A stretch of 64,000 nt of DNA. It comes from an uncultured Candidatus Saccharibacteria bacterium (GTDB taxonomy: Bacteria; Patescibacteriota; Minisyncoccia; Phycocordibacterales; UBA9973). The notes below the pieces were generated by a model, which saw nothing but the letters and a program-made list of their open reading frames with translations, made no database searches and was not told where the DNA came from. The position numbers and the translations under genes were made by a program. Location: NCBI GenBank assembly GCA_964625065.1, contig CAZUZL010000002.1, forward strand, positions 58,067 through 122,066. Reading direction: 5' to 3'. This document shows positions 52,211-54,083 of this stretch, in pieces (position 1 is the first letter of the stretch; each line of letters begins with the position of its first letter).

Positions 52211-52509
52211 TGAATAGTACTAAGCCGGAAATTTATTTCCGGCTTTTTTATTTTATACACTATAACGGAATTTAACGGTCGTTAATTTCCGTTACCATTA
52301 CACACAAATAACAAAAACCACCTTTCGGTGGTTTTTGTAGAGGATACAAACTTTCTTTTGTTTCGTTCTGACCGGGACTTTCCCCGGCGTCAACATGGTT
52401 AAGGTCACAACATGCTTGGACCATTATGCACTCGATCGAGCTGCACAATATCGACACCATAAGTGTATATCTGGTTGAATAGATATAAACACGGTTTCAA
52501 ATTGAATTA

Positions 52510-54083
52510 TTCCACGACCAGCTTCCGCTAGCCGTGCCTTGTTACGACTTAGTCCCTGTTACCGAATTTACCTTAGGCCCTACTTATGTAGAGACTTCGG
52601 GTACTCCCGGCTCCCTTGACTTGACGGGCGGTGAGTACAAGACTTGAGAACGTATTCACCGCAGTATAGCTGACCTGCGATTACTAGCAATTCCGGCTTC
52701 ATGAGGGCGAGTTGCAGCCCTCAATCCGAACTGGCGCGACTTTTAGAGATTGGCTCCGGGTTACCCCATTGCAGCTTTCTGTAGTCGCGATTGTATTATG
52801 TGTATAGCCCCAGATGTCAAAGGGACATGCTGACCTGGCGTCATCCTCTCCTTCCTCCCAGTACAAAATTTGCGAAGCAAATTTTGTACAGTTTACAGTT
52901 GTTAGTTTACAGTTTACAGAAAATACAAATTGCATTTTTACTGTACACTGTCCACTGTTAACTATTAACTGCGTGCTTCACACGCTTTGTACTGGGCGGT
53001 CTCGCGTGACATTTATAACACACGACGAGGGTTGCGTTCGTTACCCCACTTAAGGGAACAATTCAAACCACGAACTGACGACGGCCATGCATCACCTGTC
53101 AACTAGTCTTTCGAGGGCCCCGGTTTCTCGGGGCTTTCACGTTGATTTCTAACCTTGGTAAGGTTCTTCGTTTATCGTCGAATTAAACCACATAATCCAC
53201 TGCTTGTGCAAGTCCCCGTCTATTCCTTTGAGTTTTAGCCTTGCGGCCGTACTTCCCAGGCGGATCTCTTAACGCGTTAGCTGCGTCTCTCAGAGGGTCG
53301 ATACTCCGAAAGACTAGAGATCATCGTTTAGGGCGTGGACTACTGGGGTATCTAATCCCATTCGCTACCCACGCTTTCGTGTTTCAGTGTCAGTAATGTG
53401 CCAGTAAGCTGCCTTCGCTTTTGGTGTTCCCCAAGATATCAACGGATTTCACCCCTACACCTTGAGTTCCGCTTACCTCTCACATACTCAAGCATGACCG
53501 TTTCGTTCGCGTTTTCCAGGTTAAGCCCGGATCTTTCACAAACGACTAATCACGCCACCTACACACCCTTTACGCCCAATAATTCCGGATAACGCTCGGG
53601 GCCTCTGTATTACCGCTCCTGCTGGCACAGAGTTAGGAGCCCCTTATTCATGAAGTAATGTCAATAAAATTCTTCATTCATAAAAGATCTTTACACCCCG
53701 AAGGGCTTCATCAATCACGCGGCGTCGCTCCGTCAGACTTGCGTCCATTGCGGAAGATTCTCGACTGCGGCCACCCGTAGGTGTATGGACCGTGTCTCAG
53801 TTCCATCGGTGGGGGTCACCCTCTCAGGTCCCCTAAGCGTCATTGGCTTGGTAGGCCATTACCCTACCAACTACCTGATACTGCATAGGCTTCTCCCAAA
53901 GCGTTAAAACTTTAACCCGTAGGTACTATCAAGTATTAGCTAATCTTTCGACTAGTTATCCCTGACTTTGGGGTGAATTCCTATGTATTACTACCTCGTC
54001 TGCCACTGGTATTGCTACCCGTTCGACTTGCATGCCTTATCCACGCCGCCAGCATTCATCCTGAGCTAGAATCAAACTCTTAA
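52510..54083 (-). rRNA. 16S rRNA with a 123-nt insertion in helix 40.
   Basis: 5' AGAGTTTGATTCTAGCTCAGGATGAA (reverse complement of 54058-54083) through GTCGTAACAAGG plus helix 45. The insertion is at 52866-52988. A bidirectional terminator lies at 52311-52335. Confidence 0.85.

Follow-up and report, generated by a model that had tools for sequence, protein, structure and literature searches.

The 16S rRNA gene in the window—the whole 64-kb stretch of DNA analyzed here—has lost the anti-Shine-Dalgarno (anti-SD) motif CCUCC, and this loss is confirmed as genuine and lineage-wide, being neither an error in the sequence nor a displaced exon. Bacterial start sites are, by the textbook, selected through pairing of the SD with the anti-SD, one of the most conserved segments of rRNA. 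In this organism, the former anti-SD positions carry a predicted, co-varying mini-hairpin, and many gene starts are of leaderless type. Loss of the anti-SD by substitution, leaderless or SD-free starts, and retention of the hairpin for maturation or assembly are likely the joint explanation.

The 16S rRNA gene and its 3′ end

The 16S rRNA gene extends from 54087 to ∼52495 on the minus strand and is full length, the conserved tail including the mini-hairpin reaching to ∼52495. The Rfam model SSU_rRNA_bacteria (RF00177) matches 54087..52500 over model positions 1 to 1533 with 1340 bits against a gathering score of 50; this full-length match and helix 45 with its GGAA loop place the gene among the bacterial 16S rRNAs. 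A promoter-like site, TTGACT-16-TAGAAT (54315..54342, minus strand), lies upstream of the gene after the secF terminator. The transcription unit ends in a hairpin with a T run that resembles an intrinsic terminator (52311..52338, minus strand), 160 nt past the tail. Helix 45, CACGGCUAGC-GGAA-GCUGGUCGUG (52513..52536, minus strand), is intact, as the original prediction had stated: it aligns to the model as a 10-bp stem with a predicted folding energy of −17.3 kcal/mol (z = −3.7) and carries the conserved GGAA loop, the KsgA dimethyladenosine site. Its pair 6–19 co-varies between GC, CG, and GU over 91 species. From 52536 to 52493, the minus strand reads CACGGCUAGC-GGAA-GCUGGUCGUG-GAAUAAUUCAAUUUGAAACC.

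The bacterial 16S tail GAUCACCUCCUUA with CCUCC is not found; the aligned tail is GAAUAAUUCAAUU. In cmscan, the model tail AUcACCUCCUUu is aligned without gaps to AAUAAUUCAAUU at 52511..52500 with posterior "*" throughout; the positions of the anti-SD core CCUCC (model 1526–1530) are therefore occupied by AUUCA at 52507..52503 of the minus strand, and the predicted absence of CCUCC from the tail holds. The linker (52507..52512, minus strand) is GAAUAA instead of GAUCA(C) in the same alignment and GAWYAW in the relatives. Statistically, one 5-mer missing from a lone sequence means nothing; the absence of CCUCC gains its weight from the gap-free alignment of the model tail and from the 119/120 related species that lack it. 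The claim that no CCUCC follows within ∼200 nt proved correct over a longer distance: CCTCC does not occur on the minus strand between 58231 and 49996, i.e., for ∼2.5 kb downstream of the 16S and past the terminator-like hairpin at 52338..52311.

An odd tail could arise as a sequencing or assembly artefact, as a chimeric join, or in a decaying pseudogene copy. 16S genes are frequent sites of assembly breaks and mis-joins—contig L001 ends 47 nt into the 16S—and the neighboring downstream genes appear unusual, one sign being a weak T9SS-tail match. Such an origin is nevertheless extremely improbable. DNA of this organism is present in runs SRR13208906 and SRR13208889; a Logan contig (L152) assembled independently from the latter, a different run, agrees at 374/374 aligned bases, spanning the downstream gene, the trailer, the tail, and the 3′ strand of helix 45. 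Errors of sequencing or assembly are hence unlikely, including the one at 52500 to 52520 that the original prediction named. The tail begins in the same way in three further sequences, being common to L043 and L080 through GAAACC and to L105 through GAAAC, and the 1340-bit match covers the full model in a gene with its own promoter and terminator. A search for more 16S assemblies via spurious ORFs inside the gene found none on record; the downstream gene yielded the one independent contig. The second alternative, put forward in the original prediction, is a true anti-SD tail displaced by a 3′-terminal intron or insertion and restored by splicing. This genome and its lineage do have rRNA introns: the 23S carries an insertion of 404 nt that matches a group I intron, and the 16S alignments of relatives break around position 1100. 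This alternative has just as little to commend it: the model aligns through helix 44, helix 45, and tail without a break, the same tail stands directly behind helix 45 in ∼100 other species, the 2.5 kb searched downstream hold no CCUCC-bearing exon, and the terminator follows 160 nt after the tail. An Rfam scan of 52200..52515 gives no intron family at E ≤ 10, the permissive scan returning only sub-threshold, terminator-driven matches. Neither an intron fold nor a homing-endonuclease ORF was found after helix 45, where the only ORF is one of 62 aa, its exact sequence unrecorded in the gene collection.

Past the tail, the 3′ trailer contains a second hairpin, GUGUUUAUAUCU...AGAUAUACAC (52463..52492, minus strand), which is variable in sequence; a hairpin at this site in 101 species of type A (tails with the mini-hairpin) has a mean z of −2.5 versus shuffles, so that conservation is of structure only. 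The GUGUCGAU motif (52450..52457, minus strand) is common to anti-SD-retaining relatives, and in the form RNGUCGR, it lies within 110 nt in 70 loci. A leader–trailer processing helix was considered and dropped: when the 223-nt leader was folded against the trailer with duplexfold and cofold, no clear stem emerged, nor did a partner for GUGUCGAU.

Affiliation and distribution

Judged by its rRNA, the source is a Parcubacteria/Paceibacteria (CPR) bacterium near "Nomurabacteria." The best 16S matches are Nomurabacteria MAGs at 86 to 94%, and the helix-45 signature is common to Nomura-, Kaiser-, Taylor-, Zambryski-, Adler-, Lloyd-, and Yonath-bacteria, Paceibacterota, and Minisyncoccus. There is also a CPR-type 23S intron, and the rRNA genes are not linked. 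Both this affiliation and the missing CCTCCT assign the organism to the anti-SD-less subgroup of Parcubacteria: its helix-45 signature recurs in 120 species-representative genomes (Parcubacteria/Paceibacteria), of which 119 lack CCUCC.

That around half of the Parcubacteria lack the anti-SD is already published (Tsurumaki 2022; a 2024 PLoS One survey), a point missing from the original prediction. Only 48% of the 16S genes of Parcubacteria contained CCTCCT, SD helices were inferred not to form, and loss of uL1 (rplA) was reported to overlap with the absence of CCTCCT (Tsurumaki 2022, RNA 28:1041, PMC9297842). The present organism belongs to the same group and shows the same absence; the available text of that study deals with presence or absence of the motif only and describes no replacement sequence, mini-hairpin, or leaderless-type starts (PMC9297842). 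Campbellbacteria and Wolfebacteria have been listed among the SD-scarce groups that have no CCUCC, and the same category of absent CCUCC and low SD use comprises SR1, Peregrinibacteria, Nanoarchaeia, many Flavobacteriia, and insect endosymbionts (PMC10783764). The combination found here fits that category; however, the listing takes the last ∼15 nt as unstructured, whereas the tail here bears a conserved hairpin, and the organism is outside its set. As a side observation, the ribosomal proteins encoded in the 64-kb window are bL9, bL31, and bL25, and no rplK–rplA locus lies within it.

A mini-hairpin at the former anti-SD positions

The segment GAAUAAUUCAAUUUGAA contains a co-varying 4-bp mini-hairpin, UUCA-AUU-UGAA (52496..52506, minus strand), with the 5′ arm at 52506..52503, the loop at 52502..52500, and the 3′ arm at 52499..52496. 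The tail is not simply unstructured, a feature absent from the original prediction. RNAalifold predicts the hairpin from 36 sequences. Over 91 species, two-sided changes occur at 4/4 pairs, and 94% of the cells are paired compared with 27 to 46% for slid partners, in an alignment that is based on a covariance model and biased towards structure—an ungapped alignment pairs only 66% of the helix-2 cells. The covariance model was used for the tails because a MAFFT alignment without gaps mis-registers loops of different length. An anchor-based test agrees with the pairing. Compensatory arm types recur in separate clusters of a neighbor-joining tree on the last 330 nt of the 16S; since insertions in many relatives disturb this tree, only its lower, coherent clusters were used. 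Covariation in these alignments shows that the predicted mini-hairpin is kept across ∼90 species, and conservation among the relatives ends right after UGAA(A). On its own, the mini-hairpin has an MFE of 0, and a single-sequence fold leaves the stem open. In a comparison of RNA helix versus DNA palindrome, the mismatches, 8 G–U versus 5 A–C, do not tell the two apart. The hairpin was also considered as a general genomic motif and rejected, TTCA-N2-4-TGAAA occurring 7 times versus 3.5 ± 2.2 expected. No comparable hairpin exists at the 23S or 5S ends, and no published description of the mini-hairpin was found in the literature searched.

In sequence layout, the mini-hairpin matches a putative CUCC:GGAG hairpin after the 16S in anti-SD-retaining relatives. 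The 5′ arm and CUCC have the same offset, nt 7 to 10 after helix 45, and an SD-like 4-mer occurs in cis in 8/20 anti-SD-retaining tails, a number reached by 0/2000 shuffles. Both groups share the order of helix 45, linker, small hairpin, variable stable hairpin, and GUGUCGAU motif; the tail segment measures 21 nt here and 17 nt, as mature tail, in the same slot of the anti-SD-retaining relatives. In one relative, L051, a separate UUCAAUUGAA comes after a canonical anti-SD, and in L128, UUCA..UGAA sits at the tip of the trailer hairpin. Both cases would be compatible with an origin by deletion in which the hairpin is trailer sequence and not part of the mature rRNA.

Gene starts

A TATAAT-like box ends 4 to 9 nt ahead of the start codon in 20/54 ORFs of the window, compared with 3.8% of all ATGs (p = 4.5e-15). 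The modal spacing from −10 box to start is 6 to 7 nt, with a strong excess 6 to 8 nt before ATG. The start codon is ATG in 18/20 promoter-adjacent ORFs, i.e., AUG is preferred over GUG and UUG. Examples are scpA, one of the 20/54, with TATAAT at 8525..8530 on the minus strand and, after 6 nt, ATG at 8518; a PfkB kinase gene with TATAAT at 25832..25837 on the plus strand and, after 6 nt, ATG at 25844; and a start with TATAAT at 59144..59149 on the plus strand, inside the end of the upstream gene and 7 nt before ATG 59157. In the relatives, the −10 box precedes 67/303 starts versus a background of 2.8% (22–25% versus 2.8–2.9%), so that the excess characteristic of leaderless-dominated expression appears in the window and in the relatives alike. 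From this arrangement, we infer that promoter-proximal genes are transcribed as leaderless mRNAs.

SD-like motifs are not enriched upstream of the window ORFs (3/54 versus a 4.6% background), the outcome within this window of a check that the original prediction had proposed. They are found at 11.6% versus a 13% background in anti-SD-less relatives and at 23% versus 11.8% (p = 0.005) in anti-SD-retaining ones. Predicted duplexes of the upstream regions of window ORFs fall below background in strength, whether formed with the canonical tail or with the one that the organism has. The upstream regions are A/T-rich and G-poor, and the −10 box is their sole positional motif. Clade-wide loss, −10-box excess, and absent SD enrichment together support the earlier claim that loss of the anti-SD fits the leaderless TATAAT–ATG starts.

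Role of the tail

In the explanation regarded as likely, substitutions in place would have turned CCUCC into AUUCA, and the loss of the anti-SD is common to the entire surrounding clade; ribosomes of this lineage could therefore not choose starts by SD pairing. At promoter-proximal genes, a −10 box 6 to 8 nt before AUG would give a leaderless mRNA read from its 5′ AUG, while internal genes have upstream regions that are rich in A/U, poor in G, and not complementary to the tail of the rRNA. Constraint on that tail would persist, UUCA pairing with the UGAA three nt downstream and this pairing being preserved by compensatory changes; anti-SD-retaining relatives often bear a GGAG-like sequence in cis just past CCUCC. 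The role of the mini-hairpin is probably in 16S 3′-end maturation or late 30S assembly, independent of mRNA; the layout shared with CCUCC-keeping relatives makes such a role the most likely one.

Three other readings bear on the same segment, where our placement of the mature 16S 3′ end is itself inferred. The tail might be an altered anti-SD that pairs with a matching, altered SD-like motif upstream of genes, as its sequence is conserved across species and some organisms have been proposed to use such altered pairs (PMC10783764). This is highly unlikely, given that the organism's own 13-nt tail or linker pairs worse with upstream regions than with random genomic 20-mers (Mann–Whitney p for stronger tail/upstream pairing > 0.99), that the upstream regions have no positional motif except the −10 box, and that second-codon usage is independent of the type of hairpin arm. 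Pairing of the 5′ arm UUCA with AUGAA of leaderless mRNAs was likewise discarded: species with UCC/GGA arms start with ATGAA in 8/21 and with ATGGA in 2/21 cases. Alternatively, the mini-hairpin may exist in the precursor only, where it would guide or block 3′ nucleases, the mature 16S ending a few nt past helix 45 much as the mammalian mitochondrial 12S does. The cis GGAG arm and UUCUAAA.. hairpins beyond the expected mature end in anti-SD-retaining relatives, the UUCA..UGAA hairpin after a complete tail in L051 and L128, and the weakness of the hairpin by itself speak for this reading. It is still the less probable one: linker and hairpin are as conserved as mature rRNA, conservation stops exactly after the 3′ arm with the remaining trailer hypervariable, and the segment occupies the slot of the mature tail of anti-SD-retaining relatives at a similar length (21 versus 17 nt). 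More doubtful again is an intramolecular stand-in for the SD:anti-SD duplex, with the mini-hairpin in the mature 30S permanently occupying the platform cleft. Here, the 5′ arm at the CUCC offset from helix 45 would be joined by a 3′ arm that replaces the SD strand of the mRNA, and a "self-SD" hairpin CUCC:GGAG of the precursor stage would have been fixed and then have drifted by compensatory change. Such a ribosome would be committed to leaderless or SD-independent initiation.

Comparison with known systems

Mammalian mitochondrial mRNAs begin at or beside the start codon. The 12S rRNA of these mitochondria has no anti-SD (PMC10582724), and the organism resembles them in combining a small-subunit rRNA without anti-SD with leaderless-type starts. 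It differs in lineage and ribosome composition, and the mitochondria keep an Era homologue, ERAL1, which binds helix 45, whereas Paceibacteria are mostly without Era, the factor that binds GAUCACCUCC (PMC12641178, PMC10582724). In the SD-blind Flavobacterium johnsoniae, ablation of the anti-SD impairs 16S processing (PMC13000453). SD-independent initiation and A-rich upstream regions are shared with such Bacteroidia, whose tail serves 16S maturation as a second function; however, Bacteroidia keep CCUCC, sequestered by bS21/bS18/bS6, whereas here the motif is gone—so that a retained but sequestered anti-SD does not apply—and many starts look leaderless instead of following a 5′ UTR that lacks an SD.

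Actinobacteria, Deinococcus, and haloarchaea have a −10- or TATA-type element at a fixed short distance from AUG. The starts described here share this arrangement with leaderless-rich bacteria and archaea, but those groups retain a functional anti-SD that is used for leadered genes, whereas it is absent here. A large and environmentally abundant radiation without anti-SD constitutes a natural experiment in SD-free translation. The mini-hairpin suggests a second, mRNA-independent job of the 16S tail that outlived the anti-SD, in agreement with the Flavobacterium genetics, and is a concrete, testable element, the related Minisyncoccus archaeiphilus now being in culture; its strain PMX.108 has a tail of type B (GGAUCA plus U-rich). 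For gene calling in CPR genomes, the starts imply that SD-based start models misplace starts; within the window, the TTG calls at 21658, 43314, and 56712 are better read as promoter-adjacent ATGs.

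The 16S rRNA tail

The 16S rRNA gene (54087..52500, minus strand) matches the Rfam model RF00177 over its full length at 1340 bits (model positions 1–1533). Scanned against the model, its 3′ part features helix 44, the AAGUCGUAACAAGG junction, and helix 45 (CACGGCUAGC-GGAA-GCUGGUCGUG; 52536..52513, minus strand). The tail AAUAAUUCAAUU is a gap-free match to the twelve model positions AUcACCUCCUUu and, hence, AUUCA (52507..52503) is the counterpart of the anti-Shine-Dalgarno (anti-SD) core CCUCC. On the minus strand, CCTCC is absent from 58231 to 49996, a range that includes a terminator-like hairpin and its T run downstream of the gene (52338..52311, minus strand). 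The original prediction—an intact helix 45 followed by a tail without CCUCC as far as the terminator—proved right in all details upon re-reading of the sequence and alignment to the model.

A sequencing or assembly error or a pseudogene as the source of the odd tail is made very unlikely by L152, an independently assembled contig from another run (Logan SRR13208889), which is identical to the window over 374 aligned bases, from the downstream gene across the entire trailer and the tail into the 3′ strand of helix 45. The alternative given in the original prediction, a 3′-terminal intron or insertion displacing the true tail, is rejected, as an Rfam scan of the trailer at permissive settings gave no intron-like match.

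The rRNA genes are unlinked: the 3′ part of the 23S and the 5S lie at 62743..64000, and the 16S (52495..54087) follows 8.6 kb downstream on the same minus strand, with nine protein-coding genes in between and with its own terminator and promoter-like site (TTGACT-16-TAGAAT, 54342..54315, minus strand). The 23S carries a 404-nt insertion (63270..63673, minus strand) at about model position 2620, with a sub-threshold match to a group I intron (RF00028, 36.9 bits, E = 1.8e-7, 63283..63540). In BLAST comparisons with many relatives (L008, L070, L109, L018, L009, L021, and others), the alignment of the window's 16S breaks at position ∼1094–1103, which points to insertions, probably introns, that the relatives' genes have and the window's gene lacks. 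Three plus-strand ORFs (49714..52210) converge on the 16S 3′ end, and their linkage to the tail is confirmed by the independent contig. The first, of 511 aa, weakly matches a T9SS C-terminal sorting domain (Por_Secre_tail, 25.7 bits, below cutoff), an unusual find in a CPR genome; the other two match no Pfam family.

Taxonomic distribution

One genome per species (GTDB representatives) was scanned with the unusual helix-45 signature as query and the tail left free, which yielded at least 120 loci. Among the matches listed, CCUCC is absent after helix 45 in 119 of 120. Nearly all of these matches are MAGs labelled Parcubacteria or Paceibacterota, the labels including Nomura-, Kaiser-, Taylor-, Zambryski-, Adler-, Lloyd-, Yonath-, Harrison-, and Jorgensen-bacteria; one match is the cultured Minisyncoccus archaeiphilus. 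The window's 16S is nearest, among the matches listed, to Nomurabacteria MAGs (identities of 94% and 92% where the overlap is partial, and of 86% over 1 kb). As judged by 16S similarity, the organism is a CPR bacterium of the class Paceibacteria, and it shares the absence of the anti-SD with its lineage.

The anti-SD-less tails among the matches listed sort into two types. Type A, to which the window belongs, features GGA-WYAW and then a short inverted repeat, which reads UUCA-AUU-UGAA in the window (52506..52496, minus strand) and UCCA..UGGA, CUCA..UGAG, or GUCA..UGAC elsewhere. Type B, found in Minisyncoccus and relatives (loci L077, L091, L034, L026, L044, L049, and others), keeps GGAUCA and is then U-rich (GGAUCAUUUAUUU...), with CCUCCUU replaced by UUUAUUU or AUUAUUU and without the mini-hairpin formed by the type A repeat. 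In a rough tree, type B clusters beside lineages with the anti-SD retained; there are hints that its tail represents an independent loss.

Tsurumaki et al. (2022, PMC9297842) detected the anti-SD motif in just 48% of the 16S genes of Parcubacteria and reported an overlap between the lineages without it and those without uL1. A survey from 2024 (PMC10783764) places Ca. Campbellbacteria and Ca. Wolfebacteria among the SD-scarce groups without CCUCC. Since the loss is already published for Parcubacteria, the core finding is a further instance of a documented phenomenon. What is added here is a quantified association with promoter-adjacent starts, the division of the decayed tails into two types, and, at the former anti-SD position, a mini-hairpin with co-varying pairs of which no description was found. 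Paceibacteria lack rplA and der and mostly era (PMC12641178), and the KH domain of Era binds GAUCACCUCC (PMC10582724); the frequent absence of Era fits a relaxed constraint on the 16S tail.

Translation starts

A start was termed promoter-adjacent if a TATAAT-like hexamer (TAnnnT, at least 5/6 matches) ends 4–9 nt before the start codon. Such starts occur in 20 of the 54 non-overlapping ORFs of the window, against a background of 3.8% for all ATG triplets (binomial p = 4.5e-15), with a sharp peak of the spacing at 6–7 nt and with ATG as start codon in 18 of the 20. For the longest-ORF TTG starts at 21658, 43314, and 56712, an ATG 1–3 codons downstream, at canonical −10 spacing, fits better. 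Position −1 is T in 35/54 starts, and the upstream regions are A/T-rich and G-poor. SD-like cores (GGAG, GAGG, AGGA) at −20..−3 are not enriched (3/54 ORFs versus 4.6% of random positions), and duplexes of the upstream regions with the canonical tail, the window's own 13-nt tail, or the linker are all predicted to be weaker than background. A perfect AGGAGG stands 13 nt before the GTG of a C-terminal transketolase half (30855..30880, minus strand); it sits within the overlapping upstream ORF and fits chance (1/54).

Promoter-adjacent starts are similarly in excess in relatives: 22% (background 2.8%) of 303 ATG ORFs from 101 type A loci, 25% (2.9%) of 61 from 18 type B loci, and 16% (2.7%) of 74 from 31 loci that keep the anti-SD. 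This excess in all three groups argues for leaderless-type expression as general across the radiation, and the leaderless (TATAAT-ATG) reading of the original prediction is supported to that extent. SD-like cores amount to 11.6% in type A (background 13%), 13.1% in type B (14.3%), and 23% (11.8%, p = 0.005) where the anti-SD is kept: SD use is weak even with an anti-SD and gone where it is lost. A full-text search, of incomplete literature coverage, found no description of leaderless-type starts as prevalent in CPR bacteria; no priority is claimed.

The mini-hairpin

RNAalifold predicts the mini-hairpin helix from a gap-free alignment of 36 sequences. In 91 species aligned with a covariance model built from this seed, two-sided changes are seen in all four pairs, with 94% of cells paired; the observed covariation values are reached by 0 of 500 shuffles, and pairing falls to 27–46% when the partners are slid. 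Alignment of tails by covariance model is biased toward structure, and in an ungapped alignment, since the loops vary in length, pairing in helix 2 reaches just 66% of cells. A structure-free test, which took the invariant CA and UG as its sole anchors and read the bases flanking them, agrees with the covariance-model picture: the inner pair is T-A in 31, C-G in 6, and mismatched in 5 cases, the outer T-A in 30, C-G in 3, G-C in 2, T-G in 3, and mismatched in 4. The variants CUCA/UGAG, UCCA/UGGA, and GUCA/UGAC each occur in more than one cluster of the rough tree, the first also among the window's nearest relatives. Comparative analysis thus supports the mini-hairpin as a real helix. By itself it is not stable, and its G-U and A-C counts are 8 versus 5; a palindrome at the DNA level, rather than an RNA helix, could also account for the repeat.

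Origin and role

Metagenomes were scanned for the same helix 45 with GAUCACCUCC after it, which gave 30 contigs with 19 distinct tails and, with L051 from the genome scan, 20. In 8 of these 20 anti-SD-keeping tails a GGAG-like 4-mer lies at most 14 nt after CCUCC (mean of 0.5 in shuffled tails; 8 reached by 0/2000) and is predicted to pair with CUCC, e.g., CUCC-UUUCUAU-GGAG. A stable, sequence-variable hairpin follows CUCC:GGAG, and in several of the other anti-SD-keeping tails a GUGUCGRU motif lies farther downstream. The order of elements in the window is the same, with helix 45 leading into the 6-nt linker GAAUAA and then the mini-hairpin, after which come ACC, a variable second hairpin (52492..52463, minus strand), and GUGUCGAU (52457..52450, minus strand). 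The second hairpin is kept in structure, not in sequence, in 101 type A species (mean z = −2.5). The 5′ arm UUCA of the mini-hairpin occupies nt 7–10 after helix 45, the exact place of CUCC in the canonical tail. In the simplest reading, an ancestral pairing in cis of the anti-SD with a downstream pseudo-SD would have outlived the abandonment of SD-dependent initiation, its two strands drifting jointly. An origin by deletion is also possible: in L051 a complete anti-SD comes before UUCAAUUGAA, and L128, another relative's locus, carries UUCA..UGAA at the tip of a trailer hairpin.

Sequence conservation ends right after the 3′ arm, and the trailer beyond is hypervariable, which favors the mini-hairpin as belonging to the mature rRNA or, failing that, as a specific recognition element. 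A processing signal confined to the precursor is a serious, though less likely, rival. In Flavobacterium johnsoniae, ribosomes ignore the SD, yet ablation of the anti-SD impairs 16S maturation (PMC13000453); the tail therefore has an mRNA-independent role. A role of the mini-hairpin in 3′-end maturation or late 30S assembly appears most likely, and a permanent mimic in cis of the SD duplex improbable. Pairing of the 5′ arm with the 5′ AUGAA of leaderless mRNAs was tested and rejected.

Further features

The window encodes bL9 (12167..12604, minus strand), one of three ribosomal proteins often missing in CPR bacteria; the lineage retains it. The RNase P RNA (43387..43720, minus strand) barely passes the Rfam gathering threshold (105.3 against 100 bits), a sign that it may be divergent or reduced. 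A long inverted repeat (62605..62732) with 22-nt arms (GAAAAACTCAAAAGACTTTAAA) around ∼80 nt lies close downstream of the 5S; its sole match is a chance-level one to a Miscellaneous miRNA family. Two ORFs of ∼225 aa (11413..12099 and 31971..32645, minus strand) contain IS200-like Y1 transposase domains and exceed the typical length of TnpA.
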